Both the position numbers and the translations under genes were made by a program. A stretch of 64,000 nucleotides of DNA. It comes from an uncultured bacterium. Its GTDB lineage: Bacteria; Verrucomicrobiota; Kiritimatiellia; RFP12; UBA1067. The notes below the pieces were generated by a model. The model did not search any database and was not told the DNA's origin. It saw only the letters and a program-made list of their open reading frames with translations. Location: NCBI GenBank assembly GCA_902779865.1, contig CACZDG010000003.1:3200-67199 (forward strand), in the 5' to 3' direction. Shown one piece after another: positions 35,419-57,723 of the stretch (position 1 is its first letter; each line of letters begins with the position of its first letter).

Positions 35419-35430
35419 GGAGACGCGCCA

Positions 35431-35772: not shown

Positions 35773-35777
35773 GACGT

Positions 35778-38260: not shown

Positions 38261-38269
38261 GAGGCTTGA

Positions 38270-41200
38270 ATGGGCATCGGCGGCGTTACATACACGGACG
38301 GCAGGGGACGCAAGCGGAACCTCGACGTAAACTCGCTGGAGGACTTCAAGGCGCAGTTCGGCGCGGCGGCGCGTACCCCGCGCCAGCGCGTCACGCCGCA
38401 GTTGCCTGCGCCCGGAGCGGCGCAGCCGCAGCCGAACGCCGCGCCCGACACCATGCCCGGCTCCGCCGTGGTGAACACGCGCAGCGGGCTTGCACTGAAA
38501 GGCGAGGAGAACGACCCCACGGTGCCGGGCAAGAAGGTGTACGGCTCGGTTAATGGCGTGAAGGGCTACCACACGCTTGACGAGATAGACCCGCTTGCCG
38601 GCGGCGGACGCCGCGTGGGGCATGACGGCTCCGTGAACGACGCAAGCGACGAGACGCCGGACGGCGATAGCGTACAGGGCTTTGACGGGCAGGGCTTCGA
38701 CGTGCCCGTGGCCTCGCGCATCGCGCTGACAGGCGGCGAGGACGGCGTTTACACGCTCTACCAGTTCACGCGCGATCTGCGGTTCTCCAGCGGACGCAGG
38801 GCTGGCGGGGTGTCCGCCGAGGAGAAGAAGGAAATCGGCACGATATTGATTCCCGCCGACGGCGCGGCGGACGCGCCCGACTACCCGTTCGCCGTGAAGA
38901 TGGTGTCTTCCGACAGCGCGGGGAACGAGAAGTACGGCATCTACCTTCCCCCGAACATCCTCTACGTCGCGGACGAGCAGCCCGACTTCACCACGGAGCT
39001 CAACGCCGTGCAGGACATGTCTGCATGGTACGAACTCCCCGACGGCCATAACTACGGCCCCGTGTACCTCCACGTCACGCTGCCATACGACGAAGAGCCG
39101 GTAACTGGCGAGACGGAGGGCGGGCACCATGACGCGGAGGCGGAGATCGTCACGGCGGCGGACGAACCCGGCGAACACGACCTCTACATAGAGATAGCAG
39201 ACATTGGAGACGATGGCGTCGTGCAGAAGGTTGTCGGTTCGCTTGTGATAGGCAAGAGCGCGGACGGCGACGACGCAAGCATCGCCGTGAGCAAGGAGGA
39301 CATTCCCGCGACATCTGCGACAGATCCCGAAGGCGAACACCCGGCAGGCGTCCAGCTCACTTTCACGCCAAAGGTGAATGGCAAGGCAGACTCCCGTAAT
39401 CCCGCCGTAACGGCGGCGTTGTACAACGGCGCGGACGGAGCGGACGCGGGACTTGAGATGTCCACCACAACGCCAGCGGATCCCGGAGGGCTTCACCCGA
39501 ACGGCGGAACAACCATTGTTTTGCAGCCGAAGAAGGACGGCGAGGATGACGGCCAGCCTACGGAGGTGACGGTATGGAACGGCGATGACGGCGATGACGG
39601 GGATGATGGCGCAGACGCAGGCATAACCGTCACGACTACGCCCATAAACCCCGACACCGACCATCCCAACGGTGGCACGACACTCACGTTTCAGCCCACA
39701 AAGGACGGCCAGCCCGATGGACAGCCGACGGAAATCAATGTAATCAACGGCCTAGATGGAAACAACGCGGCGGCGGCGACGGTCACGGTAGGCACCACGA
39801 CTACGGTGGCGTCAACGGAGAACGCGGAAGTCACGAACAGCGGTACAACCAGTGCGGCAATACTGAACTTCAAGATACCGCGTGGCGCAGATGGCGCGGA
39901 CAGCACCGTGCCGGGGCCGCAGGGCGTGGGCATATCGAACGTCTCCAGCGGAACGCCCACGTCGAGCGGTGGCTATACGACGACGCCCGTCACGGTCACG
40001 CTCACGAACAACACCACGGCAAGTTTCAACGTAACGGCAAAGGACGGCACGGACGGCGCGGACAGCACAGTGCCGGGACCTGCCAATTCGATAACGGTTT
40101 CACATACGTCCATTACCGGCGGACGCACCGTGACGATTACGCCGGAGACGGGCACGGCGGACTCGTTCGACGTAATGGATGGCGTGTCGCCCACGGCCTC
40201 GGTGACGAAAAGCGGCAAGACGGCGACGATAATAATCACCGACAAGAACGGCACGACGACGCAGACGGTCTCGGACGGCAAGGACGCGACGGTCGAGATT
40301 GACAAGACGAGTGCGCCTGTCTCAAGTGGACACACGGGCACGAGGATAACGTTCAAGGCGAAGTCCGGCGGCGTCGTCACCGACACCGAAGTCGTCGATG
40401 TGTACGATGGCGTGGACGGCAGTCCCGCGTCTGCAACCCCACTATCCAACAGTGCGCCCGAGACGCCGGTGCTCGACCATTCCCGTTCGACACCGGGCCG
40501 GGCGTTGGCAGGCACGTCCAACGCGGCAGCGCGTGCGGACCATGTTCATAAGCTGCCGAATACCGTCGTTGACACGGTGAACGACCAGACCGTGGCTGGG
40601 GAAAAGATATTCAGGGAAAAGATTGAGGTCGTGCCATCCGACAATGCGGCGTGGCATGGCGTGTACAGGGCGAACTACATCCAGCTCCAGAGCGGCGGGG
40701 ACACGGGGAACATGGGGCTGTCGTTCTACAAGACCAGCGACCTCACAAAGCCCGACCTCGGCACGTACATGGCGTTTCTCATCTGCTATTACGAGTCCGG
40801 GACCATGGAGCTGGGCACCAACGCCAACGGCGGCGGGAATCTCGTCTTGTCGGTCGGCAACGCCAACAAGAACATCTCACTGCTGGCCACAGGGAAGGGC
40901 AGCAAAATCCTCCTGTCAGCAAAGGCCGGCAACGGGGTGGAGCTGAACGCCGTCAACACGGACGCCGTGCAAACAACGCTGAAGGCCGTGGCCGCGATGG
41001 GGTGGGTGAACGACAAGTTCCTGCGCAAGACGGACGCGGTGCTGTCGTTGCAGGGCGAGGGGCAGAATCCCGTCAAGGTCAAGGGCGCGGTCAAGCTCGT
41101 GGGCGGACAGAGCGACACGGGGCACGTCCCCGTCAACGTGGCAAGCCCGACATCGCAAACCGGCGACACGATTACGATAGCCGTCCCCGTGGGAACCGGC

Positions 41201-42427
41201 CACGACGTGGCGGCACGGGGGGACCATACCCACAACTACGTCACTCCGAGCCAGCTCACTGGCTACGTCACCATCGCCACCGCGCAGACGGTGACGGGAG
41301 ACAAGACTTTCACCAAGCCGATCAACGTGGAGGCTGTCGCGTCTGGCGTCACGGGGAAAGCGGTTTACTCCTCCAACGCCATCCAGCTCCGCCCGGTATC
41401 AGACAGCTACGACATGTGGCTGAACTTCTACAAGCCGGGGACGGAGGGGCAGGGATCGGGCTTCGGCCTGCCGATGGCGTACCTCACGTGCAATTCGACA
41501 AGCGGAAGCGTATCGCTGGGCACGGCCGCGTACGGCGGGCACGTCACGGTGGGTCCGGGCGTTGATTCGCCGTCCAAAAACCTGTACCTCCGCGCAGATG
41601 GTTCCGAAGGGCGGGTCGTCCTGCGTGCGGCAGCGGCCAACGACGTGGTGCTGGACAAAACACCCACGCAAAGCGTGGACACGTCGTCGAGGTCCGTCGT
41701 CACTACGGGCTGGGTGAACTCCCACTTCACTGCCGGAAGCAACATCTCGATCACCGACGGCAGCGACGGCACGAAGGTCATTGCCGCCACGGTCCAGAAG
41801 GGCGACCCCGGCGCGGCGGCGGGGTTCGGCACGCCGACGGCGACGGCGACGTCGCTTTCCAGCACGGCGCAGCCGACTGTGGAGGTGACGGCAAGCGGCG
41901 CGAACACGGCGAAGGTGTTTGCGTTCGCGTTCGGCATCCCCAGAGGGGAGAAGGGCGACCCCGGCGCGGACGGCAAGGACGGCAAGGACGGCGCGCCAGG
42001 CGCAACGGGACCGCAAGGCCCGAAAGGCGACAAGGGCGACAAGGGCGATCCAGGGGAGGACGGTGAGGACGGCGCGCAAGGGCCGCGAGGACTGCAGGGC
42101 GCAACGGGACCGCAAGGCCCTAAAGGCGACAAGGGCGACAAGGGCGACACGGGCGACAAGGGCGACACGGGTGAAACCGGCGCGCAAGGGCCGCGAGGAC
42201 TGCAGGGCGCAACGGGACCGCAAGGCCCTAAAGGCGACAAGGGCGATTCTGCGGAACTTCCCAATATAAACGTGGTGATCAATGTCGCTCTCAATTACGA
42301 TGAAAGCAGCCACAAGTTCACGATGACCTTGACGAAGAAAAATCTCAAGACTGGAGCCGAAACGACGGAAGGCCCGACGACCGTATTCACCGCCGTTTCC
42401 CACGACACCGCATACGGGAGTAACTGA
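38270..42427 (+). CDS. 1385-aa tail fibre with DG-rich beta repeats, two paralogous modules and a collagen-like G-X-Y tract
   Basis: Repeated ...DG.DGADSTVPGP... segments. AARADHVHKLP and AARGDHTHNYV modules. About 105 residues of GXY (GEKGDPGADGKDGKDGAPGATGPQGPKGDKGD...). Confidence 0.8.
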   Translation: MGIGGVTYTDGRGRKRNLDVNSLEDFKAQFGAAARTPRQRVTPQLPAPGAAQPQPNAAPDTMPGSAVVNTRSGLALKGEENDPTVPGKKVYGSVNGVKGYHTLDEIDPLAGGGRRVGHDGSVNDASDETPDGDSVQGFDGQGFDVPVASRIALTGGEDGVYTLYQFTRDLRFSSGRRAGGVSAEEKKEIGTILIPADGAADAPDYPFAVKMVSSDSAGNEKYGIYLPPNILYVADEQPDFTTELNAVQDMSAWYELPDGHNYGPVYLHVTLPYDEEPVTGETEGGHHDAEAEIVTAADEPGEHDLYIEIADIGDDGVVQKVVGSLVIGKSADGDDASIAVSKEDIPATSATDPEGEHPAGVQLTFTPKVNGKADSRNPAVTAALYNGADGADAGLEMSTTTPADPGGLHPNGGTTIVLQPKKDGEDDGQPTEVTVWNGDDGDDGDDGADAGITVTTTPINPDTDHPNGGTTLTFQPTKDGQPDGQPTEINVINGLDGNNAAAATVTVGTTTTVASTENAEVTNSGTTSAAILNFKIPRGADGADSTVPGPQGVGISNVSSGTPTSSGGYTTTPVTVTLTNNTTASFNVTAKDGTDGADSTVPGPANSITVSHTSITGGRTVTITPETGTADSFDVMDGVSPTASVTKSGKTATIIITDKNGTTTQTVSDGKDATVEIDKTSAPVSSGHTGTRITFKAKSGGVVTDTEVVDVYDGVDGSPASATPLSNSAPETPVLDHSRSTPGRALAGTSNAAARADHVHKLPNTVVDTVNDQTVAGEKIFREKIEVVPSDNAAWHGVYRANYIQLQSGGDTGNMGLSFYKTSDLTKPDLGTYMAFLICYYESGTMELGTNANGGGNLVLSVGNANKNISLLATGKGSKILLSAKAGNGVELNAVNTDAVQTTLKAVAAMGWVNDKFLRKTDAVLSLQGEGQNPVKVKGAVKLVGGQSDTGHVPVNVASPTSQTGDTITIAVPVGTGHDVAARGDHTHNYVTPSQLTGYVTIATAQTVTGDKTFTKPINVEAVASGVTGKAVYSSNAIQLRPVSDSYDMWLNFYKPGTEGQGSGFGLPMAYLTCNSTSGSVSLGTAAYGGHVTVGPGVDSPSKNLYLRADGSEGRVVLRAAAANDVVLDKTPTQSVDTSSRSVVTTGWVNSHFTAGSNISITDGSDGTKVIAATVQKGDPGAAAGFGTPTATATSLSSTAQPTVEVTASGANTAKVFAFAFGIPRGEKGDPGADGKDGKDGAPGATGPQGPKGDKGDKGDPGEDGEDGAQGPRGLQGATGPQGPKGDKGDKGDTGDKGDTGETGAQGPRGLQGATGPQGPKGDKGDSAELPNINVVINVALNYDESSHKFTMTLTKKNLKTGAETTEGPTTVFTAVSHDTAYGSN
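42070..42246 (+). repeat. perfect 69-bp direct repeat (42070-42138 and 42178-42246) inside the collagen-like tract
   Basis: Read directly. Copies are offset by 108 bp, so the repeat is in frame. Confidence 0.9.
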
Positions 42428-42429
42428 CG

Positions 42430-43179
42430 ATGAGCAAGCAGATAAGTCTGTTTTCCAACATCGACTGGGAGGCGGTGCAGGTTTCACACCCCGGCATTCC
42501 TGATAGTGCATGGAGTGCGGGTCAGCCGTCTTTCGTGGCGGATGACAGACCGTATCACAGCATTGTCAGGCCCCCAGACTACGGCATACCGCCGGAGAAC
42601 AAACCGAAATGGACGATTGGCGGCGTGGTGTACACTCGGACACTCGACCATTGGGAATACACCTACGACGCAACAGATCCGTGGTCAGAATGGACGGACC
42701 GGGTTTATTCTAACATCACTGGCGTGTTCATCAACAACGAAATATGCGAGGTGCCAGATGTCCAGCCTCCCTATACCGGCGGCACATTGAATGTAATCGC
42801 CTACATGAAACTGGTTCGCGCCGACGAGGATCCCGACGCAACTTGGTTGATTACCGTAGAGGCCAGTCCAGCAAACGGGGGCGTGATAACGATAGACGGA
42901 GAGGCCATAAGCAGCAAGCGGGTTCCAAGGAACGGGAGCGCAACGGTCAGGGAAACGCCAAATGCGGGTTTCGCTTTCAAATGGTGGACGTTTCGTCCTC
43001 AATACGGCGACAGGACTTTCCCCGGCCCTGCGTATGTGCTTACGCCGACCGGTGACTTGAGTTGCGTGGCGTATTTCCGGAGGGCGACCGGCAAGCTGCT
43101 CTGCACGGGCTCGGACTCGAGCGCCGGCGCGGGGAAGATGCTGTGCGACTCGTCGGGCAACCTTCTGTACGACGGCTGA
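42430..43179 (+). CDS. hypothetical tail-associated protein with InlB-B-repeat-like segment
   Basis: ITVEASPANGGVITIDGEAISSKRVPRNGSATVRETPNAGFAFKWW. The 5' half is noticeably lower in GC. Confidence 0.6.
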   Translation: MSKQISLFSNIDWEAVQVSHPGIPDSAWSAGQPSFVADDRPYHSIVRPPDYGIPPENKPKWTIGGVVYTRTLDHWEYTYDATDPWSEWTDRVYSNITGVFINNEICEVPDVQPPYTGGTLNVIAYMKLVRADEDPDATWLITVEASPANGGVITIDGEAISSKRVPRNGSATVRETPNAGFAFKWWTFRPQYGDRTFPGPAYVLTPTGDLSCVAYFRRATGKLLCTGSDSSAGAGKMLCDSSGNLLYDG

Positions 43180-43231
43180 CGGGAGGCGGATTTCGGAAAC
43201 TGGAAGGCCGAAACATGAAAGGAACTGAATC

Positions 43232-44281
43232 ATGGCAATCAAGGTAAAGCACGAAATGAACGCGGCACCGGCCGCAGCGGCGACGCTCGTCGCCGGCAGG
43301 GCGCGGAGGTCGATGGAGACGGCGCGGATGTTCGCGGCGGGCTCCGGGAGCGGCGGTCGCGGCGGAGGCACCACGGGGGCGCAGGCGCACCCGATAAGCC
43401 CCGGCGGAATACAGGCGCACGTCGCGGCGGCGCACGCCCCCGGCGTCACCGACTGGGAGGGAACGAGGCGCGAGAACGCCGCGCAGGAGGCCGCGAGGCT
43501 GAAACAGGCGATGGACGTTGCGAACGCGAACAACGCCGCCGCGAAGGAGCGCGCCCAGATGGGCATCGACGCGGACGCCGCGAAACTGGACAAAACGCAG
43601 GAGTTCACGAAGAGCCAGACGGAGGCGGATCGCAAGTGGCGCGAGGAGCAGGAATCTAACAGGCTGAAGCTGGAACAGGAGCTGTACGACTACAAGCTCA
43701 CGCGGAAGCAGAAGATGGAGCTTGCCGCGATCAACGACGCGCTGGAGGAGGCGCGCGCGTCCGGGCGCTTCTCGGACGACGAGATGGCGGAGCTTGAGCA
43801 GCAGGCGTATATCCGCCGCGCCGGAATCAAGCCACTTCCCACGCCGCGCGAGAAGGACGCGCAGAGGGCGTTCGACGAGCGCATCGTGACCGCCGGGGGC
43901 GTGCGCGGCTACATCAACTCAAAGGGCGACTTCGAGCCGTTCCAGGACCCGAACGCGAAAAACGAGAAGCGCCTCACTCTCAACGACGTGCTGAAGAACG
44001 TGCCGACGAAGAAAGTCGACCCGGCGGATCCGGTGGGAAATGAAATCGACGTCCCAATCAGCGAACGGCTTGACATGGCGCAGAAGATCCTCGACAGGAT
44101 GTACCCGCCGCAGACAACAGAGACGCCGCAGCCCGCCGCACCTACGAGTCCCGCTCCTACGCCCACGGCGCAACCCACGGCGGCAGGTACTGCGCAACCC
44201 GCGCCGGTCCAGCCTCCGCCAGCGGACGCGACGCCAGAGCAGAAAGCCGACTACGCAGACAAGAGGTGGATGAGGAGGTAG
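43232..44281 (+). CDS. coiled-coil, Ala/Pro-rich putative internal virion protein
   Basis: ORF track. Composition and position. Confidence 0.6.
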   Translation: MAIKVKHEMNAAPAAAATLVAGRARRSMETARMFAAGSGSGGRGGGTTGAQAHPISPGGIQAHVAAAHAPGVTDWEGTRRENAAQEAARLKQAMDVANANNAAAKERAQMGIDADAAKLDKTQEFTKSQTEADRKWREEQESNRLKLEQELYDYKLTRKQKMELAAINDALEEARASGRFSDDEMAELEQQAYIRRAGIKPLPTPREKDAQRAFDERIVTAGGVRGYINSKGDFEPFQDPNAKNEKRLTLNDVLKNVPTKKVDPADPVGNEIDVPISERLDMAQKILDRMYPPQTTETPQPAAPTSPAPTPTAQPTAAGTAQPAPVQPPPADATPEQKADYADKRWMRR

Positions 44282-44284
44282 CCC

Positions 44285-47200
44285 ATGCAGCAGATTTTCC
44301 ACATGCGCGGCGAGAACGGCAAGGACTATGACGTTCCCGAGAACGAGATGGAGGAGTTCAAGCAGTATGTGCCGAACGCCATGCGCGTCAACTCGCACTT
44401 CGGGAAGAACGGGAAGACATACGACGTTCCCGAAAACGAGACGGAGGAGTTCAAGCAGTATGTGCCCGACGCGCAGCCGATGCGCCGCTACTCCTTCTCC
44501 GACGGCTCCACCCGCGACTTCACCGTGCCGGAGCTTGCGAAGTTCCTGCGCTCCGACGAATACCGCAAGGGCGAGAGGTACGCCAAGGACAGGGAGGCGG
44601 ACGAAAAGGCGATGGCCGACTGGCAGCGCAGGCGCGACGCGGCGCAGGCCGCCGTGCCGTCGGAGTTGCAGCCAAGGGGTTTCGGCTCCGCGCTGACCCG
44701 CAACATGCTGTCGGCGGAGGGCATACGCGAAACGGCGGAAGACAGTCCTTCCGCGTGGCTCTACGGCTTTTTCAACGATGTTGCAAACTCGTTCGTCGGC
44801 GGCATAGGCAGCGGAAGCGGCAAAATCACCGAAGCCACGGGGCACCTCATCGGCAACAACGCCGTCGGCAACGCGCTCGTGGAAGAAGGCCGCGCGGGAC
44901 AGCAGGCCATCAGACAGGCGCTACCCACGGACATGGCCCCGAAGACGGGCAACGCCGTGGTGGACAAGGTGGCGGACGTAGGCAGGGGCGTGGCGAGCGT
45001 GACGGGCGAGTTCCTGCCAGCCGCCATTCCCGGCGTAGGGCAGGCATACGCCGCAAGTACGCTAAGTGCTGGGGCCGTGAACCGCATGAACCAGGTGTAC
45101 GACGCCGCGAAGGGAAACGGCTTTTCGGACGCGGCCGCGAGCTCGCTTGCATTTGGCGCGGGCGCGGTGGACGCCTTGCAGAACATCCTTCTGATGAAGG
45201 GTTTTAAGGGCATTTGGAACGGCGCGGAGAAACAGGCGGCGGACGCCGTGAAGCAGTCGCTGGTGAAGAAACTTACGGTCGATACGCTCAAGACAGGCGC
45301 AACGATGGGCGCGGGCGGCATGGCACAGGACGTGGTGGACCAGAACGTCGGCATCGACAGGGAGGGCAACGTGAGCGCGGTGCTCCCCTACGACATACGC
45401 CGCACGGCGGAGGTGGGGATTGATCAGTTCCTCGAAGGAGGGGCGTTCCACCTCGTCAACACGGGTGTACATGCGGTGAAGAGACGCATAATAGACGTAA
45501 AGTGGGAGGACGACGCAAGAAGCGATGGCGCGGAGGCGGCGCGACGCGCACTTGACGCGCCGGAGGGACGCGCCCTCGTCATGTGCAACAACCCGGAAGC
45601 CGCCAAGAAGATTCTTGAGGCGCGGTCGCAGGGCAAGGACGTTAGCCGAAAGATGCTGGAGGATTTGGGCATTCCCGTGGACGTCGCGCCAAGCAAGACG
45701 GACAGAAACGCGCTTGCGGACGCGATGATTGGCGACTACCGCGCCTACAAGGAGTGGCAGAGGCGGCTTCCAGACGCGGAGCAGTCAGCCGCGCTGAACA
45801 CGGAGATCGCCGGGATAGGCGTGGAGGTCGAAGAGAATGGCGAGATGACGGAGACGGCGTCGCTCATCCGCCAGGGGGTGCTTTCCAAAATCAAGGACGC
45901 GAAGGAACTTGACGACCCGAAGCGCAGGGCGGACTTGGTGTACGAGGCGGCGAAGGGGCTTCTGGGCGACAACGTGGGAATCGAGGGTCAGCCGCTCACG
46001 CCGCCGGAGCCCCCCGCAGAAACGCCGAAAAACGCCCCTGTGAGCGCTCCGCCGCCGGAAGGCACAACCACGCCGCCGGAACCGGCGGAGCCGCCACAGC
46101 CAGCGGAAGCCCCCGAATCCGCCACGCCAGAGCCCAAGCCGGAAACGCCGAGTCCCGTGTCGCCTGCGGAAGCTGGCGAAACCCCTGCGGAGCACTCGCG
46201 GCGAATCATCGAAGAGGGGCGCAGGAACCTTGCCGCGTCCCCGAACGCGAAGACCGTCAAGACCGGCAAGAAGGACGCCACCGCCACCATCTACACGCCG
46301 ACGGACGGCACTGGCGCGTTCAAGGTGACGAGAAAGACGTTCACGCACGGGTTCCGCGGCCCCAACAGGGCCGACAACGAGGCGGTGAGCCAGCACCTGG
46401 GCGAAACGCTCGACGGCTCGCTCGCACTCCCGGAGCATGGCACGGACGGCACGCGCTTCCGCATGTCTGCGGTCAAGATCGGCGGCGAGGACGCCCACGT
46501 GCTTTTCACGATCAACAAGGCCGGGAGCGTGACGGACGTTGACGTGCTGAAGGGCCTGAACGCAAAACGAAACCCCGAAGGGACAAAGCTAAGCACGTCA
46601 GAGACGTTGGCCGCCGGTACCTTCGAGGTGTCGGAAGGCAGTATAGCAGATTTCGACCGCGTTTGGCAAGAGCAATTCAAGCCCGGAATAACGAAGCCGA
46701 AAACCGTCAAGGCCGACCCGAAGAAGGCCGCGAAGGCCGTTGAGGGTTTCGTGGCGACCGACCCCACGCGCAAGACGCTGATGCACGTCCACCACGACCA
46801 CGAGGAAGGCGTGGCCGTCGCGACAGACGGGCGCGTCTTGATCGCCACGAAACACGGCTACGACAAGAACGCAAAGGACGACCCCGAAGCGCCCTACCCC
46901 AACTGGCGGCAGGTAATCCCGGACTACGACGGCAAGACGTACAGGACATTCACGGAAGAGTACGTGGAGGGCAAGGGCAAGTGGAGGAAAAAGGCCGTCG
47001 ATCTTCCCGTCCACACGCTGGAGACCGACCCCGCCGCCGTATCGGCCGCCTGCAAGAAGGCCGCGTCCCTCGCAAAGGCCGTAGGGCACGAAGGCGCGGT
47101 GTACGCCTCGCTCGAACTCCCGGACGGCGGGCGTGTCATGATGGACCCCGCCTACCTCCGCAAGGTGGCGGACGCGATGGGCGCGAACGGCATCACGGAG

Positions 47201-50200
47201 ATCAGGGCCGTCGCGCCGAACAGGCCGATCCTCGCGAAAAACGCGGACACCACCATCGTCGCCATGCCGCTGCGCGGAGGCACGACCGATGCGCCCACGG
47301 GACGCGTCTCCGGCAACCCGCTCGTCATCGACGCCATGACGGGCCGCATTCTGACAGCGCCGGAGCGCAGCGACAACACGGCGATGACAAGCCGCAAGTG
47401 GGCGGACGAGCTGAAAAAGGAGATCGCGCGCGCCCGCGACGACGCGATGGCCGACGCGCGCACCGAAGACCTGTTCAAGAACATCGCGGGCGCATGGAAG
47501 CGCGGCGAGACGGACGCGAAGGCCGTGTTCGACGGCTATTCGGGCGATGGCGCGTGGGAAAAGCTCCCGCAGACGGAGCGGACGCGGTTCGAGGAGTGGT
47601 TCGCGCTGAAGGACGAGAACGCCCTCGCGGAGAAAGTCGCCGAATACGTCGCCGACCAGTTCCCAGACCTCAACCGCTGGCGCAAGGACCTTCCGCGCGA
47701 GGTCGCGAAAATCGAGAAGCGAATCGCAGCCGAGGACGAGATAGACGCCCTCATGGCCGGCGAGCCGCCGCCGGCCCCCGCCCCCAAGCCCGTCAACAAG
47801 GGCAAGGGCAAGGAAGCCGTCCAGGCGGCAAAGGCGCTCGGTTCGCCGGACGCGGCAAGCCCGCTCCGCCCCGCGCCGAAGGGCGCAAAGCTTGTGCAGG
47901 GCGAGTTCGACGGCATGGGCGGCGAGACGGCGGCAAGGCCGGAGGCTACCGCGCTGAAAGGCAAGTCTGACCTCTCCAAACCGGACAACGTAATAGCCCT
48001 TCGCGAATATGTGAAGGGTGTCACGCCCACGCCCATTCCACAAAGACTTTCTGACGGGAAGCCAAAGACCGCACTTGAATGGTTCGAGGCAAACATGGTA
48101 GGCAAGACGTTCTCGTTCGACATTCCGGGGTACGGGCACCGCGAGTTCACCGTGAAGCCCGGACACATAGGAACTCTAGTTTGCAGGGGCGGGCGGAATG
48201 CCGACGGCACAAGGATCGTGAAAGGACGCATTGCAAAGGCGAACGGAGACATAGCCCGCGCGTTTGAGATGGTTCGCAATGGCGAGGTTTCCGAAGCGGA
48301 CGTGGAGGGATGGGATCCCCTTCGCGCAAAATCACTCCCTCTCGTTCCAGAGGTGTTCAAGTCGTTTGATGTGGCCCTTCACGAAAAAGACGCACACGGA
48401 AACGACATCGTAATCCTCGCTAAGAAGTTCGTGAACAAGAAGGGTCGCCCAAACGTCGTCGTCATGAAGTTGGTAAACGACAACGTTTCGATAGGTCCGC
48501 TGTCATCGCACGTTGGCGACCTGACTTTCTCCTGGCTGAAAAATAAAGACCTCCTCCTCACGGATGAGGGGAAGGTCTATGACGGGGCTGCGAATGACTC
48601 CGCAAGTCGCAGTCCACTTAAAGGGGATAACGCGGAGGGCAACTCCCCTGAAAGCGGCGATATGATACCACGTCCCGGCGGCGAAGTCAAGGGCGGCGCG
48701 GAAAATTCGCAAGAGACGAAAAAGACGCCAGACCCGCAGAACGCCGCCCGCAACCCGTCCGCGCTACGCGACCCCGCGTTCGTGAAGTGGGCGAAATCGA
48801 AGGGACGCGCCCCGACGCCCTTCGCGCGACGCGCCTACGACGCCGCGCAGCTCCGCGCCGCCGTCCCCCTCTACCGCAACGTCTTCCCCGACATGAACAT
48901 CGTGATCCACGACAAGGTGGAGGATCCCGCGAAGTGGACGGCCGACCACCCCGACGGAACGCAGAAGATGATTGGCGGCGTAGGCGGAGCGTCGAACATG
49001 GGCATAAAGGGAGCGGCAGACGCCGAAGCGCTGGAAAAGGCCGGCAAGGACCGCGAGGAAATCTGGCGCAAGACAGGCTGGTGGCGTGCCAAGGATGGCA
49101 AGTGGCGCTTCGAGCTGCCGTCCACCAAGATGAAGGACGCAAGGGCGCTTTATGCTGCGCTCATCGAAGGACACAACGAGACGACGCTCGGAAAGATACT
49201 GGACGCACCCGAACTGTTCGAGGCGTATCCGCAGCTGAAAGACACGAAGATCATCCTTTCGCCGGAGCATAACGACGAAACTGGAGGATGGTATAACCGT
49301 ATCAAGAACGAAATCGTCCTCTTCGACGCCGGCCTCGTTTCCTTAAAGGACATGCCGTCACACGAAAGGGATCTTCGAGACACCTACCAGAGAGTGCTTG
49401 ATTCGGACGAGTTCGTCCGCCGTAGATTCGCAGACATGGATGCGTTCGGCATCGAGCATGGCACAGTCGAGGAGGAGCGCGAGTACGCGAGGTGGTGGAT
49501 CGAACGGCAGGATAAAGGAATCGCCAGGACCAACGAGACGAAAATCCGCGACCTGGCGAACGACAGGAGGGTTTGGAGCGTATTCGGAAAGATAATCCAC
49601 GAGGTACAGCATGCAGTGCAGCACATCGAGGGCTTCGCGACGGGCGCAAGCGGCAATGAGGATGGATACAGCCGTTTCGCCGGCGAGGTTGAGGCACGCA
49701 ATGCTGCGCGGCGTGAAGCCATGTCGCCGGAGGAGCGCGCGGCCACGCCGCCATGGGCGAGCGAAGATGTTGCGGAGGGCACGCAGATAATACGACGCAT
49801 GATCGTCGATCCGAAGAGCGGCGAAGTCCTCGGATGGTACACGCCGCAGTTCAAGGAGGTGCACCTCAACCCCGGCGCGACCGTGGAGACGCTCGCCCAC
49901 GAGATGCTCCACGCCGTGCAGGACTGGGCCAAGACGAACAGCCCCAAGCTCGCGAAGGCGCTGGACGACATCGCCCGCGACTGCCCGGAACGGCTCAAGA
50001 AGCGCATCATGCGCGCATACGGCGTAGTCTCGCCGGAGACCATCATGAAGGAGTGGGGCGCGTTCAACTTCATGGGCGGCCCGGAGGGCGGCAGGGGCAG
50101 GGGCGGCGCGGCCCTACGCGACGAGCTGGCCAAGCGCGAGAACGCCGCGTGGCTCGGGCGGTTCTGGGACGCGGCGAAGGACGCATGGAAGGACATGGCC

Positions 50201-53119
50201 GCGAAGATGGGCGGCAACCGCATCGACCTCGACGCGATAGACTCCAAGACCCCGCAGGAGGCCATGGACTTCCTCGCCCGCGCGTTCGCCGAGGGCGGCA
50301 CCGTCGGCAAGGCCAATCCCCCCGGCAAGTCCGTGCGCCCCGCAATCGACATGACGAAGCCGCTCTCCTTCGCTGAGAAGTGGGACGTCAACCTCCACGA
50401 CTACCGCAGCCCCCTGAAGTGGCTGCGCGACGAGATGGCGAAGCGCGGCTCGTCGTTCGCCGACGACACCGACTTCTACGAGGCCGCACGGCTCCAGAAG
50501 GGATACGACCAGGCCGCCGTCAACGACGCGAACCGCCGCCTGAAGGAGTACACCGGCAAGCTCAAGAAGCTCGGCGTGAAGCACGAGGAGGTCGTGGAGT
50601 TCATGCAGGCCCAGGCCGCCAAGGACCGCAACGCCATGATCCTGGAGAAGTTCGGGCGCGAGAACGGCTCCGGCATGACGGACGCGGAGGCCGCGCGCAC
50701 GATCAAGGCGTTCGAGGACGCGGGCAAGGGCGACGCCCTGCGCGAGATCTCGGACTTCCTCCTCGACATGCAGCGCGAGGGATTGCAGTACCGCGTCGAA
50801 ACGGGGCTCCTCTCCGCAGAGGACGCGCAGAGGATGGCCGACCGCGAGCCGTTCCACGTCCCCTTCCGCTCCGCCGTCGATCCAGAGACCGGCGACTACG
50901 TGCAGTGGGGCAGCGACAAGGCCCTCGAAAAGGCCGAGTTCAAGGAGGCGAAGGGCCGCAAGACGCTCGCCGACGACGTGGTCGGCTGGATGTTCTCCGA
51001 GTTCATCGACGCCCACACTCGCGGCAACGAGAACCGCATACGCAAGATGGTCGCCGACGCGATGCGGCTCAACGCGAAGTCCGGCGTCGGCAAGATACTC
51101 AAGGGCGCCCGCAAGCAGAGCGCATACGACTTCTCCGCCGGAGAGTACAAGACCGGCGCGGACGGCGACGGGCGCACGGGCGACAAGGCGAAGACCGCGA
51201 TTGTGGACGATCCGCGCTTCCGCGAATCCCGCAAGAACGGCGACGGCGGGCGAAAGAACGTCCTCGCCTTCAAGGAGGGAGGGCGGACGCACTACATCGA
51301 GTTCGCCGAGGGCGAGCGCGGCGAGCGGTTGCAGGCCGCCGTCAACGGGCGCGACCTCAAGAGCATGGGCAAGCTGTGGAAGAGGGGAATGCGCTTCTGG
51401 TCGTCCACCGCAACCGAGTGGGCGCCCACGTTCGCGCTGCGCAACTTCGCGGCGGACAACATCGACGTGTTCGGCAACTACATCGGCGAGCACGGGATCG
51501 TCAAGGGCTCGGCGTCCTACGCGCGGCACCTGAAGAACGCCGCCGCGCTCACCCCCGCCATAACGCGGTACATCGCCACCGGCGACATCCCGCAGGGCGT
51601 CGGCGGCGAGTGGATAAGGCGCTACGAGCAGTCCGGCGGCTTGATCGCGGGCTACGCATCCGAGGGCTACGGCGAGATCACGGCGAAGATCGACGCCGAG
51701 ATCGCCAAAAGCGGCAGGTCGAAAGGCGCGGCAATCATAAACGCCGTGAAAACAGCAATAACGTCACCTTTGAAATCCGTCCGGAAGGTGCTGGGGAAAG
51801 TCTGGTATCCGATTGACGTCCTGAACCGCTACGCCGAGCTGCTGACGCGCGTGTCCGCGTTCAGGACGCAGTGCGAGAACGGCATGACCGACCACAAGGC
51901 CGCGCTCTGGAGCCGCGAATCGACAGTTGACTTCAACGAGAAGGGAAACTTCACCGGCATCACCAACGGCCTGTGGATGTTCTCCAACTCCACGCTCGGC
52001 GCGTCCGCCCGCCAGCTGAAGAGCATTTTCAAGTCGAAATACGGCTGGCAGACCGTCGCCGCATTCGTCGGCTACGGACTCGCCGAGGGACTGCTCGAAG
52101 CCCTGATGAACGGCGACGACGAGGAGCGCGAGGCGAAGGGCGAGGGCGCGGGAAAGGACGTGTCCGAGTACACCCGCGCCAACTCGCTCTACGTGCGCAG
52201 GGGAGGCAGGGTGTACCGCGTCCCGTTCCACGCCGGGCCGTTCTCATACATCAAGTACGCAGGGAACTGCGCGGCACGCGTCATGCTGGGGAAGATGAAG
52301 CCGGAGGACGCCGCGAAGGAACTTGGTTGGGAGGCCCTGTCGCAGCTCTTCCACTACACGGGAGTCGGAGACGTGAACATGCAGTCCCAGAGCGGGAGGT
52401 TCGCGGACGATGCCGCCACATTCGCCGGAACGGCCGCGCCGTCCCTCGCGCAGCCGCTCGTGCAGGGCGCGTTCAACATCGACCACGCGGGGCGCAGCAT
52501 CTACAACGAGGGCTTCCCCGGCGACAGGACGCCCCGCTCCGCGCAGGGCCGCCGCTCCACGCCAGGATGGGCGAAGGACGCGGCGGCGTGGCTCAACGAG
52601 GCCACGCGCTCCGAGGGGCACGAGACCGGCTACATCGACCTCCCGCCGGAGATAATCAAGATGGCCGGCGAGGCCGTCGGAAAGAACCTCCTCCGCGACG
52701 TGATGAACGCCGGAACGGTCTGCGCCATGGCGTTCGGCGACGAGAAGTACGACGTGCGCAACGTCCCCGTCGCCCGCGACTTCGTGCGCGCCGTGGACGG
52801 CAACGACCGCCGCTACAACGACGCCAGGAAGGAATACGAGGCCAACGCGGACTACCTCAAAAAGCACGCCCGCGAGATGTCCGCAGAGGAGCGCAGGGCC
52901 TACGTCGAGAAGTTCCCCCACGCCGCGTTCGTCGCCAAGGGCAGGCAGCGGCTGGACGGCCTGGAGACGGAGATACGCCGCCTCCGCAAGATGGAGGACG
53001 GCTTCGCGTTCGTGAAAGGAAAAGCCGTTCCCCGCGAATGGCCGGAGGAACGGCTTGAGGCGTTCAGGAAGCGCCGCCGCGAGCTTCAGGCGCTGTTTCT
53101 CAAGGAGATGGGCATGTAG
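44285..53119 (+). CDS. 2944-aa polyvalent virion protein (beta-clamp-like module, two HExxH modules, long helical C-terminal part)
   Basis: Single uninterrupted ORF with consistent G/C third positions. Motifs are detailed in the findings. Confidence 0.85.
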   Translation: MQQIFHMRGENGKDYDVPENEMEEFKQYVPNAMRVNSHFGKNGKTYDVPENETEEFKQYVPDAQPMRRYSFSDGSTRDFTVPELAKFLRSDEYRKGERYAKDREADEKAMADWQRRRDAAQAAVPSELQPRGFGSALTRNMLSAEGIRETAEDSPSAWLYGFFNDVANSFVGGIGSGSGKITEATGHLIGNNAVGNALVEEGRAGQQAIRQALPTDMAPKTGNAVVDKVADVGRGVASVTGEFLPAAIPGVGQAYAASTLSAGAVNRMNQVYDAAKGNGFSDAAASSLAFGAGAVDALQNILLMKGFKGIWNGAEKQAADAVKQSLVKKLTVDTLKTGATMGAGGMAQDVVDQNVGIDREGNVSAVLPYDIRRTAEVGIDQFLEGGAFHLVNTGVHAVKRRIIDVKWEDDARSDGAEAARRALDAPEGRALVMCNNPEAAKKILEARSQGKDVSRKMLEDLGIPVDVAPSKTDRNALADAMIGDYRAYKEWQRRLPDAEQSAALNTEIAGIGVEVEENGEMTETASLIRQGVLSKIKDAKELDDPKRRADLVYEAAKGLLGDNVGIEGQPLTPPEPPAETPKNAPVSAPPPEGTTTPPEPAEPPQPAEAPESATPEPKPETPSPVSPAEAGETPAEHSRRIIEEGRRNLAASPNAKTVKTGKKDATATIYTPTDGTGAFKVTRKTFTHGFRGPNRADNEAVSQHLGETLDGSLALPEHGTDGTRFRMSAVKIGGEDAHVLFTINKAGSVTDVDVLKGLNAKRNPEGTKLSTSETLAAGTFEVSEGSIADFDRVWQEQFKPGITKPKTVKADPKKAAKAVEGFVATDPTRKTLMHVHHDHEEGVAVATDGRVLIATKHGYDKNAKDDPEAPYPNWRQVIPDYDGKTYRTFTEEYVEGKGKWRKKAVDLPVHTLETDPAAVSAACKKAASLAKAVGHEGAVYASLELPDGGRVMMDPAYLRKVADAMGANGITEIRAVAPNRPILAKNADTTIVAMPLRGGTTDAPTGRVSGNPLVIDAMTGRILTAPERSDNTAMTSRKWADELKKEIARARDDAMADARTEDLFKNIAGAWKRGETDAKAVFDGYSGDGAWEKLPQTERTRFEEWFALKDENALAEKVAEYVADQFPDLNRWRKDLPREVAKIEKRIAAEDEIDALMAGEPPPAPAPKPVNKGKGKEAVQAAKALGSPDAASPLRPAPKGAKLVQGEFDGMGGETAARPEATALKGKSDLSKPDNVIALREYVKGVTPTPIPQRLSDGKPKTALEWFEANMVGKTFSFDIPGYGHREFTVKPGHIGTLVCRGGRNADGTRIVKGRIAKANGDIARAFEMVRNGEVSEADVEGWDPLRAKSLPLVPEVFKSFDVALHEKDAHGNDIVILAKKFVNKKGRPNVVVMKLVNDNVSIGPLSSHVGDLTFSWLKNKDLLLTDEGKVYDGAANDSASRSPLKGDNAEGNSPESGDMIPRPGGEVKGGAENSQETKKTPDPQNAARNPSALRDPAFVKWAKSKGRAPTPFARRAYDAAQLRAAVPLYRNVFPDMNIVIHDKVEDPAKWTADHPDGTQKMIGGVGGASNMGIKGAADAEALEKAGKDREEIWRKTGWWRAKDGKWRFELPSTKMKDARALYAALIEGHNETTLGKILDAPELFEAYPQLKDTKIILSPEHNDETGGWYNRIKNEIVLFDAGLVSLKDMPSHERDLRDTYQRVLDSDEFVRRRFADMDAFGIEHGTVEEEREYARWWIERQDKGIARTNETKIRDLANDRRVWSVFGKIIHEVQHAVQHIEGFATGASGNEDGYSRFAGEVEARNAARREAMSPEERAATPPWASEDVAEGTQIIRRMIVDPKSGEVLGWYTPQFKEVHLNPGATVETLAHEMLHAVQDWAKTNSPKLAKALDDIARDCPERLKKRIMRAYGVVSPETIMKEWGAFNFMGGPEGGRGRGGAALRDELAKRENAAWLGRFWDAAKDAWKDMAAKMGGNRIDLDAIDSKTPQEAMDFLARAFAEGGTVGKANPPGKSVRPAIDMTKPLSFAEKWDVNLHDYRSPLKWLRDEMAKRGSSFADDTDFYEAARLQKGYDQAAVNDANRRLKEYTGKLKKLGVKHEEVVEFMQAQAAKDRNAMILEKFGRENGSGMTDAEAARTIKAFEDAGKGDALREISDFLLDMQREGLQYRVETGLLSAEDAQRMADREPFHVPFRSAVDPETGDYVQWGSDKALEKAEFKEAKGRKTLADDVVGWMFSEFIDAHTRGNENRIRKMVADAMRLNAKSGVGKILKGARKQSAYDFSAGEYKTGADGDGRTGDKAKTAIVDDPRFRESRKNGDGGRKNVLAFKEGGRTHYIEFAEGERGERLQAAVNGRDLKSMGKLWKRGMRFWSSTATEWAPTFALRNFAADNIDVFGNYIGEHGIVKGSASYARHLKNAAALTPAITRYIATGDIPQGVGGEWIRRYEQSGGLIAGYASEGYGEITAKIDAEIAKSGRSKGAAIINAVKTAITSPLKSVRKVLGKVWYPIDVLNRYAELLTRVSAFRTQCENGMTDHKAALWSRESTVDFNEKGNFTGITNGLWMFSNSTLGASARQLKSIFKSKYGWQTVAAFVGYGLAEGLLEALMNGDDEEREAKGEGAGKDVSEYTRANSLYVRRGGRVYRVPFHAGPFSYIKYAGNCAARVMLGKMKPEDAAKELGWEALSQLFHYTGVGDVNMQSQSGRFADDAATFAGTAAPSLAQPLVQGAFNIDHAGRSIYNEGFPGDRTPRSAQGRRSTPGWAKDAAAWLNEATRSEGHETGYIDLPPEIIKMAGEAVGKNLLRDVMNAGTVCAMAFGDEKYDVRNVPVARDFVRAVDGNDRRYNDARKEYEANADYLKKHAREMSAEERRAYVEKFPHAAFVAKGRQRLDGLETEIRRLRKMEDGFAFVKGKAVPREWPEERLEAFRKRRRELQALFLKEMGM

Positions 53120-54704
53120 CCCTGTCCGTCCCCTCCTCCATCATCCTGACGCGGCGCGCGCGCATCGTCGCGTAGTCCACGGCGATGCGCCCCGCGAGCA
53201 GGTTCCGCGCCCACCCCGCCGGGGCCATGCCGTACGCCCACGCCGCCTTCCGCGCCTTCACGGCGTGGTACGCCGAGAGCCTTACGCCCCCGACGTCCAC
53301 GCCGTCAGGCCACTTCCGGCAGAGCGCCTCCACCTCGCGCCAGTCGCCGTCCGTGAACGGAACGGCGTCCAGCGCGGCGATCAGGCGCTCCTCGTCCGTC
53401 GGAGGGCGGCGGCTCACCGCGCGCCCCCCCTTCCCCGACACGCTGGCATGCCAGGCACGGAGCGCGCGCCGCGTCTCCCGCAGCCGCTCGTGCGCCTTGC
53501 ACCCGCGCAGGATCCCGCCAACGAGCCGCAGCGGCGTGACGTTCGCCGTCCCGGCCGCCCGCGCCACGCGGTAGCGCATCACGCGGTCCATCCGCACCCC
53601 GCACACGGACGCGAACTCCGGCGAGCCGTCCTTCGACTCCTCCGCGATCTTCGCGTAGTCGTCGCCGCAGAGCGCGGAGGGCGGCAGCGAGGCGTTCACC
53701 GCCTCCCACCCCACGCGGTCCATCTCGCCCTCGATCACGCGCACCGCCTCGCGCACGGCCTGCACCGGCGCCGCGTCGGCGGGCGCGGGCAGGGCGGCCG
53801 GGGCGCCCTGCGTCCCCTGCGCCCCGGCGAGCGCGTGGAACACGAGGTCCGCCGTCGCCGCCTCCTCGCCCTTGCGGTACTCCACGAACGCCTCCGCGCC
53901 CGTCACGCAGTCGCGCCGCACCATGAACACGGCCCCCGTCCCCAGCAGGACCGCCCGCCGCGCCTCGTCCGAGCCGACGCACATCAGCCCGAAGGCGTGG
54001 AGCGGGTGCCACACGCCGGGGAACGACGGCATCGGCGCGATCACGCACGGAAGCCGCCCAGCCGTCCCCAGGAGCCGCGCCGTCGCGATGTCCGCCCCGA
54101 CGGGACGGAGCCACGCCTCCGCCACCGAGCGCTCCACGAACGCGGCCACCCCGCCGAGGTCGTCGCGCCCGAGGACGCGCCGGAGGTTCGACTCCAGGGC
54201 GCGGCGCACCGCCTCCGCGTCCGCCTCCTCGTAGGGGAGGATGTGCGGCGCGGACTTCAGCACATACCCGCGCAGAAGCCGCTCCTTCAGCGTCCTCGTC
54301 GCCCACTGACGGAACTGGACGCCGCGCCGCGAGTTCACCCGGTAGCCGACCGAGATTATCGCGTCGAGGTTGTAGCACCGCACCGTCCGCGTCACCGTGC
54401 GTTTCCCCTCGATGTCAACTATTTGAAATTCTTGAATAGTTGATTTTCTGTCTAGTTCACCATCATCGAATATGTTCTTGAGGTGTGTGTTGATATTCGG
54501 CGTGTTGCACCCAAACAGCACTGCCATTTGCTTTTGCGTGAGCCAGACGGTCTCGCCGTCCATCCGCACATTTATCTTCGCGGCGTCCGTCGGCTGATAG
54601 ACGACGACCTCGCCGTTGCTGTTCCCGTCGAGCACGGCGGCGGAGCCGTCGCCCGTATTCTGCGCGTTTGTATAGCGGGCGCGCGCCGCGTTTTTCTTGC
54701 TCAT
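53100..54704 (-). CDS. RhuM-family N-terminal domain fused to ~380-aa unknown Ala/Arg-rich domain
   Basis: TVWLTQKQMAVLFG...HLKNIFDDGEL...YNLDAIISVGYRVNSRRGVQFRQWATRTLKERLLRGY is the RhuM core. The C-terminal frame is confirmed by near-uniform G/C third positions. Confidence 0.75.
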   Translation of the reverse strand: MSKKNAARARYTNAQNTGDGSAAVLDGNSNGEVVVYQPTDAAKINVRMDGETVWLTQKQMAVLFGCNTPNINTHLKNIFDDGELDRKSTIQEFQIVDIEGKRTVTRTVRCYNLDAIISVGYRVNSRRGVQFRQWATRTLKERLLRGYVLKSAPHILPYEEADAEAVRRALESNLRRVLGRDDLGGVAAFVERSVAEAWLRPVGADIATARLLGTAGRLPCVIAPMPSFPGVWHPLHAFGLMCVGSDEARRAVLLGTGAVFMVRRDCVTGAEAFVEYRKGEEAATADLVFHALAGAQGTQGAPAALPAPADAAPVQAVREAVRVIEGEMDRVGWEAVNASLPPSALCGDDYAKIAEESKDGSPEFASVCGVRMDRVMRYRVARAAGTANVTPLRLVGGILRGCKAHERLRETRRALRAWHASVSGKGGRAVSRRPPTDEERLIAALDAVPFTDGDWREVEALCRKWPDGVDVGGVRLSAYHAVKARKAAWAYGMAPAGWARNLLAGRIAVDYATMRARRVRMMEEGTDRATCPSP

Positions 54705-56125: not shown

Positions 56126-56457
56126 GCGCACCGAAAAAGTTTTTTTCGGTCGCCAACCCGTTCAAATCCACCGTCTTGAAATTCAACGTTTTCAAAAACG
56201 CGCCCGGCCGGCGGCTGTCTGGCCGACCATCTGGACGGCGGTTTTCAAGGTGATTCAATCCGCACACGTTGAACGCGAAGAGCCTGTCTGTACAAGGCCG
56301 AGAAGCGATTCTTCAACACACATATATATGTTTTCGTTCCCTCGCGCGTACGCGCGCGTAGTAGTATTTACCCAAATATACTTTAAGTATATTTGGGAAA
56401 TGCTACGTGTTCTTCTTGGTTTTTTATATACGCGCGCGCGAGGTTGAAAACGGGCGT

Positions 56458-57615
56458 TCACCCCATTTTCAGCATGGCTGGCGTCGCCGCCTTTATGATC
56501 TCGTCCTCGGCCGCCTCGAAGGAGTAGCGGTCGGTGATGCGCAGGCCAAGCGTGTGCCCGAGAACCGCGCTTGCGGCGTCGATGCCGAAGCGGCGGCGTA
56601 TCTCCGTGGCGCACGTGTGGCGCAGCTGGTTCGGGTGCCAGTGCGGCACGTCCGCGCGCTCTGCGGCGCGGGAGATCGCTCGCTGGTACGCCTCGACCTT
56701 CCACTTCTCGCCCACGCTGCGCCCGACGGTCTGCCTGGGCGAGAACACGTAGCCGTCGCCCTCGTACTTCGCGAGTATGGCCTGCGCCTTCGGCCCGAAC
56801 ACGATCACGCGCGGCTTGTTGCGGTGCTTGTTCTTGTGGTTCCCCGGCCTGTACGCCCAGATCTTGCCGCGCCTCTCGACGAGCGGCCACGCGAGCTGGC
56901 ACATCTCGTCCGGCCTCGCGCCGCACAGCCGCTGGACGCGCACCATGTCGGCGAGCGGCTCGGCCAGCTCCGCGCACGTCTTCTTCACGTCCGCGTCCGG
57001 CACGGCGGCCACGGGGCTGCACTCCTTCACGTTGCCGCGTCCGCGCTTCAGCTGCGAGATCGCGGTGGCCTCCGCCTTCACCTGCGCGGAGATTATGCGC
57101 TCGTCGAGGGCCCACGCGAACATGCGCTTGACGAAACCGAGGTACTTGTTCACGGTGGTGCGCACGTACCCCTTCGCGGCGAGCGCGTTGCGGTACTCTA
57201 TCATGTCGGGGTGCGTCATTGTCTCGACGGGGCGCGTCCCGAACATTTCGCGGAAGAGCCTCATGCCGCGAACGCTGTCGGCGGCCTCCTTCGACCCGCC
57301 GGAGTAGTACGTCTCCGCGTGTGCGGCCCACTTGTCGATCACGTCGTTCACGGTGAACGCGGGCGCGTCGATTCCCGCGTCCGCCTGCCTTGTCATGTTC
57401 TCCCACAGACGCCACGCCGCGCTCTCGGCAATCGACCTGGTGCTTGCACTTGCGGGTATTCTCTCGCCGGTGTACGGCATTGTGAGGACGTGGTCTTTTC
57501 TTGTTTTTTCGCCAGGATTCGCGACTCGCCAGTGCCACGCGCCGTGGGACTCCCACAGCGTGCCGGGCAGGGCGGCCCGCCTTCTCGTGTCAGCGTTTTT
57601 GTCAGCACCTGTCAT
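56458..57615 (-). CDS. int: tyrosine recombinase / phage integrase
   Basis: C-terminal HPNQLRHTCAT...VLGHT...RY catalytic motifs. Start set at MTGADKN (GGAGA RBS). Adjacent to the att repeat and tRNA. Confidence 0.85.
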   Translation of the reverse strand: MTGADKNADTRRRAALPGTLWESHGAWHWRVANPGEKTRKDHVLTMPYTGERIPASASTRSIAESAAWRLWENMTRQADAGIDAPAFTVNDVIDKWAAHAETYYSGGSKEAADSVRGMRLFREMFGTRPVETMTHPDMIEYRNALAAKGYVRTTVNKYLGFVKRMFAWALDERIISAQVKAEATAISQLKRGRGNVKECSPVAAVPDADVKKTCAELAEPLADMVRVQRLCGARPDEMCQLAWPLVERRGKIWAYRPGNHKNKHRNKPRVIVFGPKAQAILAKYEGDGYVFSPRQTVGRSVGEKWKVEAYQRAISRAAERADVPHWHPNQLRHTCATEIRRRFGIDAASAVLGHTLGLRITDRYSFEAAEDEIIKAATPAMLKMG

Positions 57616-57676
57616 TTCATGTGTCTCCGTTTCATGCCCTAAGTGCGTTTCGCCCAATGTTTGCAAGGGTTTTCGA

Positions 57677-57723
57677 TGGAGCCGGCAGAGGGATTCGAAC
57701 CCCCGACCAGCGGTTTACAAAAC
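57677..57723. repeat. att repeat, right copy (forms the 3' part of the intact tRNA-Thr)
   Basis: Identical to 8340-8386. Confidence 0.95.

Follow-up and report, generated by a model that had tools for sequence, protein, structure and literature searches.

Polyvalent proteins of phages were defined by Iyer et al. 2017 (PMC5512222), who listed LPD38 among the domains restricted to the phage type and predicted that the zincin peptidases of these proteins are processing enzymes. Among giant proteins of this kind, phi24B gp47 (2811 aa; LPD5, LPD1 and LPD38) was abundant in virions by mass spectrometry and absent from the cryogenic electron microscopy map, and the 2026 preprint reporting this proposes that gp47 is an encapsidated ejection protein. 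For JC1 gp69 (4515 aa), 51 unique peptides were recovered from purified virions by mass spectrometry, while knock-down of PTXU04_00025 (2198 aa, annotated by LPD38 only) impaired infection, making that protein critical for efficient infection. Here we describe a related gene in a prophage of an uncultured bacterium of the Kiritimatiellia (Verrucomicrobiota), lying in a 64,000-nt stretch of DNA (assembly GCA_902779865.1, contig CACZDG010000003.1, positions 3,200 to 67,199 of the forward strand), hereafter the window, whose own numbering is used throughout. The gene (44285-53119, + strand) is the last of the late operon and encodes 2944 aa in one stop-free open reading frame (ORF). We consider its product to be probably a phage-type polyvalent protein of the LPD38-terminated family that is packed in the capsid and ejected with the DNA.

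The family placement follows from two Pfam domains and from homology over the C-terminal third. Pfam LPD38 was found at aa 2624-2829 (57.7 bits; nt 52154-52771) and LPD23 at aa 1569-1616 (53.6 bits; nt 48989-49132), both above the curated cut-off of 27 bits, and PHROG 14770 (E 4e-44) together with PHROG 616, a family with a profile as long as the 933W-type giant protein, covers aa 2121-2903. With LPD domains above threshold, disparate domains in one chain and a gene situated among virion genes, the protein belongs to the polyvalent class, as a sequence-only reading of the window had suggested. The C-terminal part of about 1,100 aa (C-module, aa 1845-2944; 49817-53116, + strand) matched 328 records in a tblastn search of GenBank phages, from podoviruses of roughly 57-66 kb that include Shiga-toxin phages (933W, phi24B, VT2-Sakai), Vibrio D60-like phages, and Burkholderia (Bcep22-like) and Ralstonia phages, the last two with matched features annotated as 'DarB-like antirestriction'. 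The alignment with 933W L0134 extends over 959 residues at 23% identity (E 2e-32), and more than 60 residues of the C-module are invariant across relatives. The comparison with giant internal proteins of other podoviruses thus shows homology to those of 933W, phi24B, Bcep22-like, Ralstonia and Vibrio phages, and since the relatives phi24B gp47 and JC1 gp69 are found in virions, it supports the earlier proposal of an ejected internal protein.

Similarity to each described system is partial. The giants 933W L0134 and phi24B gp47 (~2800 aa) are of similar size, and share the C-terminal ~900-1100 aa including LPD38; in 933W the gene is likewise the last large one, downstream of those for tail and fibre. 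Their architecture is LPD5-LPD1-MuF_C-LPD38, whereas Pfam finds no LPD5, LPD1 or MuF_C in the window protein, which has instead its own N-module, a clamp-fold module, a further module (C) and an LPD23-zincin cassette; upstream of aa ~2020 it has no alignment to L0134. The giants Bcep22 gp75, JC1 gp69 and their Ralstonia counterparts (~4500 aa) share a stretch of the C-module (about 225-585 aa, 23-28% identity). JC1 gp69, virion-associated by mass spectrometry, occupies 22% of its genome and closes the morphogenesis module, yet annotations of these proteins name helicase, methylase and transglycosylase parts, and Pfam found none of these in the window protein. PTXU04_00025 is likewise a giant phage protein, with LPD38 as its sole confident annotation, and is likened to ours by this signature. 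The N4 virion RNA polymerase gp50 (~3500 aa) is a giant protein that is carried in the capsid and delivered to the cell along with the DNA, and Iyer et al. (PMC5512222) report a zincin peptidase domain in it and class it as polyvalent-type; neither an RNA polymerase module nor sequence similarity to gp50 was found in the window protein. By comparison, the phage-type polyvalent proteins of Iyer et al. (PMC5512222) agree with the window protein in their disparate modules, more than one zincin-type peptidase, LPD domains, virion-gene context and mosaicism, although the word 'clamp' does not occur in the main text of that paper and the window's N-module and module A have no Pfam family.

We examined whether so long an ORF is a genuine single gene. 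At the base composition of the gene, stops are expected every ~38 codons, giving a probability of about 1e-34 for 2944 stop-free codons. The high GC content of this DNA yields long spurious ORFs, so that ORF length by itself is weak evidence here; typical of these is a 950-aa antisense ORF at 36812-39664 (- strand), opposite the tail genes. The giant ORF shows coding periodicity, with GC of 0.63/0.46/0.84 at the three codon positions, and has a strong ribosome-binding site: a Shine-Dalgarno-like GAGGAGG box, read directly from the sequence at 44272-44278 (+ strand), lies 7-13 nt 5' of the ATG, and the stop of the upstream gene ends at 44281, 3 nt ahead of the start. Twelve public contigs from three sources (NCBI, Logan and ENA) record a protein identical to the window product (P0194). 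An independent 15.9-kb ENA contig (L003), 99.6-100% identical in DNA, carries the same 2944-aa ORF with 3 substitutions. Assembly frameshifts, which the sequence-only reading had raised as a sign that several genes might be fused, can thus be dismissed within the limits of short-read data, and relatives of the giant protein likewise have uninterrupted ORFs of 2200-3400 aa. The gene makes up 17.9% of a 49.3-kb element bounded by 47-bp repeats, in agreement with the 18% first estimated, and stands, as had been noted, downstream of fibre genes, including one for a 1385-aa collagen-repeat tail fibre (38270-42427, + strand). In L003 this fibre (1059-5108) has 1349 aa in an otherwise 99.6-100% identical contig, a difference that points to repeat-length polymorphism.

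The module map was drawn from BLASTP and phmmer searches against 190 homologues. For the centre of the protein, a word-index search gave 5 hits and missed the identical P0001, evidently because its list of 8000 candidates was filled by non-relatives, which we attribute to the Pro-rich linkers; an exhaustive search of representatives was used instead. The N-module (aa 1-564; 44285-45976, + strand) is conserved in about 28 metagenomic relatives and consists of repeat cores followed by a Gly/Ala-rich stretch. There are indeed two 24-aa cores (aa 8-31 and 39-62; nt 44306-44470), identical at 20 of 31 positions, but their period is 31 aa, so the repeat is not strictly tandem as had been described. 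A Pro/Glu-rich linker, also seen in the first reading, follows at aa 565-640 (45977-46204, + strand) and contains 24 Pro and 13 Glu in 76 residues. Module A (aa 641-806; 46205-46702, + strand) has the invariant polar residues H688, R691, D697, N698, H704, E707, R726, E735 and H738. Pfam scans of the homologues of modules A and B found no family, and hhalign detected no relation between modules A and C.

Module B (aa 807-1170; 46703-47794, + strand) had been described as beta-clamp-like, and the description is borne out at the level of fold. Its AlphaFold2 model, built from a 17-sequence alignment, has a mean pLDDT (predicted local distance difference test) of 85.9, and the best 50 Foldseek matches in the PDB were all to bacterial DnaN (E 6e-5 to 8e-4, probability 1.00), with about 270 aligned columns and a template modelling score of ~0.3; weak matches to PHROG 947 and 6615 agree with this. 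DnaN is a three-domain clamp, whereas module B is only partial, embedded in a polyprotein and extended by a helical part: the beta portion comprises only ~200 residues (about aa 830-1030). As modelled, then, module B is a partial, truncated DnaN-like clamp fold, a DnaN orthologue being excluded. In direct comparisons with E. coli DnaN, 15 columns were aligned by hhalign (E 0.03), and Smith-Waterman gave z = 0.24 relative to shuffles; with sequence methods blind to the relation, the clamp assignment is one of fold. The near-invariant motif IEKRIAAEDEIDALM (aa 1141-1157; nt 47705-47755) closes module B in 20 of 20 proteins, fused or solo, occurring once per protein before a linker or the protein C-terminus. 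Stand-alone module B genes (300-500 aa) adjoin the integrase in related prophages, apart from the structural genes, such as those encoding 384-513 aa that directly follow the integrase where the early region begins (L009 8001-9542, L010 8001-9542 and L011 4510-5664); one stand-alone homologue is named in NCBI as coming from a metagenome-assembled genome of Kiritimatiellae, which hints at the host lineage of the window. We raise as a speculative and rather unlikely idea that module B is an injected 'mini-clamp' effector of an undescribed kind, keeping the peptide-binding cleft of the host sliding clamp. If so, it would bring host proteins that bear clamp-binding motifs, such as polymerases and repair factors, to the incoming genome or else sequester them, and the stand-alone gene beside the integrase would then mean that an early-acting function is either injected or expressed. 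The best-conserved residues of module B (VATDG, P..W....P and MP.R) resemble, by eye only, the three DnaN segments that line this cleft.

A Pro/Ala-rich linker (aa 1171-1220; 47795-47944, + strand), with pLDDT below 50 at model residues 373-419, leads to module C (aa 1221-1480; 47945-48724, + strand), a low-GC3 cassette that contains FDVALHEKDAHGN and coincides with the lower-GC segment at 48000-48560 singled out previously. The GC content at third codon positions (GC3) is 0.64 in module C and 0.72 in module D, compared with 0.83-0.95 in the modules flanking C, which marks modules C and D as imported. Across 12 homologues of module C, H1294, R1347, D1362, K1380, K1381 and S1439 are invariant and H1409 is nearly so. 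Four of the 12 give sub-threshold matches to PBECR2/PBECR3 (E 0.004-0.05), and in the relative P0047 the equivalent slot is occupied by Pfam MuF_C, which Iyer et al. (PMC5512222) treat as a PBECR domain. In the model of module C (pLDDT 80) a four-stranded sheet comes after the helices, and in BFVD one match named 'Nuclease' was obtained at E 1.5e-4, several weaker matches being fragments of polyvalent proteins. A small nuclease- or toxin-like domain, as first suspected, is thus plausible from the weak PBECR and 'Nuclease' matches, which fall below significance thresholds; an assignment as a PBECR-type RNase is a tentative one to which we give slightly less than even chances. Element C2 (aa 1481-1555; 48725-48949, + strand) comes next and lies directly 5' of the C-module in relatives.

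Module D (aa 1556-1844; 48950-49816, + strand) combines LPD23 with an HEVQH motif (aa 1772; nt 49598-49612) followed by E1782 and GE1801. The segment GWWRAKDGKWRFELP to which the first reading drew attention is at aa 1598, within Pfam LPD23, and both of the HExxH modules it had reported are conserved in homologues, the other being HEMLH at aa 1872 (nt 49898-49912), which opens the C-module and whose HE..H is conserved in 25 sequences. Among 20 sequences of module D, T1597, G1598, H1772, E1773, Q1775, H1776, E1782, G1800 and E1801 are invariant. Module D is accordingly a predicted peptidase by its zincin-type signature, an HExxH motif with a downstream Glu conserved across homologues; its PDB profile search returned only a non-significant match to a neutral metalloprotease (E 0.27). 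Of the 5,680 representative hits, the majority map to this module and many are solo proteins of ~300 aa, while among GenBank phages its match is limited to the LPD23 part, in giant proteins of F116/H66-like Pseudomonas podoviruses. PDB sequence searches with the whole protein, with an alignment of full-length relatives to the C-module (A3) and with profiles of modules A-D gave only low-complexity or non-significant matches. Overall, a DnaN-like fold, two HExxH modules and a PBECR-like module are separated by low-confidence linkers.

Focusing on the closest relatives, we compared the window with a sister prophage (contigs L013 and L014) that occupies the same host site, adjoining the same 536-aa gene, VIT-domain gene and heparinase gene, and encodes a giant protein of 2991 aa with Zeta_toxin, LPD13 and LPD38. 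Across window positions 33464-63889 the two are about 95-97% identical over most of the DNA, with 96.8% identity over 33464-39267 and 97.5% over 43217-46689 (aa 1-802). Exactly between 46689 and 46690, at the junction of modules A and B, the sister has an 888-nt insertion containing the Zeta-toxin domain (aa 920-1011 of the near-identical fragment P0003). Module B is again 97.5% identical, and no DNA similarity was found across 47927-53152, the 3' 5.2 kb of the giant gene, before similarity resumes 34 nt beyond the stop codon. Just one other block has been replaced in the DNA compared, namely the distal fibre region (39268-43216). The sister thus matches the window at 97% identity up to module B but differs by its Zeta-toxin cassette and by a 3' 5.2 kb that cannot be aligned, which shows that related phages exchange modules as whole blocks. 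Further rearrangements occur among other relatives: P0002 has a C-module that is 92.5% identical and is without module D, and the module order is A-C-B in P0046 and B-A in P0006. The gene, its modules, their homologies, one fold and this exchange of blocks are what the analysis shows. The sequence-only reading had called the combination of modules unusual, which holds in that the cargo set is new; mosaic combinations as such are normal for the polyvalent class.

From these observations we infer packaging, ejection, processing and every biochemical activity. The giant gene closes the structural operon and has the same position in relatives, where a convergent gene or the integrase follows. The protein would be synthesised late, packed inside the capsid of a short-tailed temperate phage and driven out through the tail, either together with the DNA or shortly before it. 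As the N-module is kept together with 97%-identical structural genes while the C-module is exchanged, incorporation into the virion may be assigned to the N-module, tying the giant protein to its own phage particle, and a generic ejection or translocation function to the C-module. Following the proposal of Iyer et al. on zincin processing, the two metallopeptidase modules would most likely cut the polyprotein at its linkers, in the cell or in the capsid, and release the cargo modules; as infection begins, these would attack host targets in nucleic acids or replication. The linker-separated centre resembles cargo under diversifying exchange, like the fibre, and this fits early effectors better than machine parts. 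The requirement for an LPD38 relative in efficient infection adds a caveat to the predicted anti-defence role, because the conserved ends may serve DNA delivery itself.

Several results weigh against this interpretation. Packaging is deduced by analogy with relatives that are only 22-25% identical in the C-module, and the C-modules of sister and window are not alignable pairwise, though both match LPD38, which would not be expected of modules docking tightly with virion proteins that share 97% identity elsewhere. In 50,697 GenBank phage records there is no match to the N-module or to module A, B or C, so that no studied virion protein carries them. The candidate portal and capsid proteins match no known phage, and the assignment to podoviruses is indirect. 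For module B, sequence similarity to DnaN is not significant by Pfam, PDB sequence search, hhalign or Smith-Waterman, and with only part of a clamp present, ring formation is unlikely. Module C of the window itself has no Pfam PBECR match, and its fold has no significant match in the PDB, the best (E 0.26) being a CdiA-CT toxin, a BECR-fold tRNase.

The alternative that deserves most attention is a purely structural one, in which the whole chain is a conduit for DNA across the envelope (an 'ejectosome') and contains no anti-defence effector; the clamp-like module would hold DNA, and the zincins would cleave the cell wall, a role suggested for gp47 by the phi24B authors. Their preprint proposes a transperiplasmic conduit with peptidoglycan degradation by the metallopeptidase domain, and PMC13434306 describes N4 as ejecting its giant virion protein and ejection proteins as one 'DNA-ejectosome'. 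The more than 60 invariant residues of the C-module, along with an LPD38 protein that is critical for efficient infection, would also suit such a machine. A fixed machine would not be expected, however, to have its centre replaced wholesale between 97%-identical sisters and its module order shuffled. Relatives have Zeta toxin, MuF_C and LPD13 in the same slots. PF01909, a polymerase-beta-type nucleotidyltransferase family, is listed for the relative P0014, and module B is found in addition as a gene of its own next to the integrase, outside the structural region. We therefore judge a wholly structural protein to be improbable, though worth serious consideration.

To the remaining explanations we give far less credence. 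That the protein is made late, stays in the cytoplasm and is never packaged, acting as a superinfection-exclusion factor or a polyprotein of benefit to the lysogen, would suit a gene that sits at one end of the prophage, close to a moron-like region (53.1-56.1 kb) and the integrase; with the gene co-oriented with the tail genes and starting 3 nt after the previous stop, and with homologues that are virion components, this is very unlikely. Even harder to credit is a DarB-like anti-restriction protein, that is, a packaged methyltransferase/helicase shielding the entering DNA from type I restriction. It is suggested by tblastn matches under features named 'DarB-like antirestriction' and 'soluble lytic transglycosylase/helicase/methylase', and JC1 gp69 has been so described, but the similarity is confined to the shared C-module (its residues 521-750 and 166-750), and Pfam, at E values up to 1, finds no methyltransferase, helicase or transglycosylase domain. 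The chance that the ORF is an assembly or annotation artefact of fused genes, or encodes a tape-measure protein, is negligible: spurious ORFs do abound in this high-GC DNA, the 950-aa frame at 36812-39664 among them, and the N-module is Gly/Ala-rich as tape measures are, yet the 12 identical contigs from three sources, the long ORFs of relatives, the coding periodicity and a probability of ~1e-34 argue against an artefact, and the gene ends the operon after the fibre genes, carries LPD38 and has no tape-measure match in Pfam or PHROGs. The DarB-like, tape-measure and artefact explanations were accordingly rejected for lack of matching domains, wrong position and replication of the ORF.

The element that carries the gene is delimited by a 47-bp direct repeat, with one copy at 8340-8386 (attL) and the other at 57677-57723 (attR), the latter forming the 3' part of a tRNA-Thr gene (57677-57751, - strand). 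A probable tyrosine integrase of 402 aa (56458-57666, - strand) adjoins attR and has the motifs HPNQLRHTCATE...LGH...RY, read by eye. A 433-aa ORF at 56255-57556 (- strand) was also considered as the integrase and discarded as an Arg-rich junk frame that overlaps the real gene. The early genes include an AAA_24 ATPase, a helicase and a PrimPol/DUF3987 protein. On the same strand as the giant gene and 5' of it are the large terminase (PHROG 2), several ORFs with no Pfam or PHROG match, and two small genes. Neither Pfam nor PHROGs recognised a tape measure or sheath in the ORFs scanned from 22.8 to 44.3 kb; together with a weak SU10_adaptor match among the ORFs of the structural region, this suggests that the carrier is a short-tailed phage (podovirus). 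The candidate portal (25179-27026) and major capsid (32352-33413) ORFs had no Pfam or PHROG match and no tblastn match in the 50,697 GenBank phage records, which places the phage far from cultured ones. Two scans of 185,579 GTDB representative genomes found no relative of the giant protein, and only 4 are present in IMG/VR; the phage lineage appears to be uncultured.

Immediately downstream, a 534-aa ORF at 53100-54704 (- strand) shares 20 nt with the end of the giant gene and has a RhuM match only over its residues 88-150. The stretch from 53 to 54 kb has a GC content of 74%, and the sister prophage has several smaller genes there; the gene call at 53100-54704 is doubtful. Beyond the prophage, the host flanks (7615-8313, 6302-7618 and 59422-63994, all - strand) encode a 3-keto-disaccharide hydrolase, a mannitol dehydrogenase, a VIT/VWA protein and a heparinase II/III, a set that fits a polysaccharide-degrading host.

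Giant LPD38 proteins take up about one-fifth of the genome in many temperate podoviruses, Shiga-toxin phages among them; only one LPD38 relative has been shown to be needed for infection, and the phi24B authors ask how such a giant protein is organised in the capsid. The kind of protein found here is already known, and the locus leaves the polyvalent concept unchanged, so that its value is incremental. What is new is the cargo set, including a clamp-fold module that lies outside the published catalogue of polyvalent domains. The three-part plan, in which a lineage-specific N-module and a generic LPD38 C-module enclose a swappable centre, suggests which part of such a protein does what, and the sister pair offers a natural experiment in which the module boundaries and the interchangeability of the ends are directly testable.

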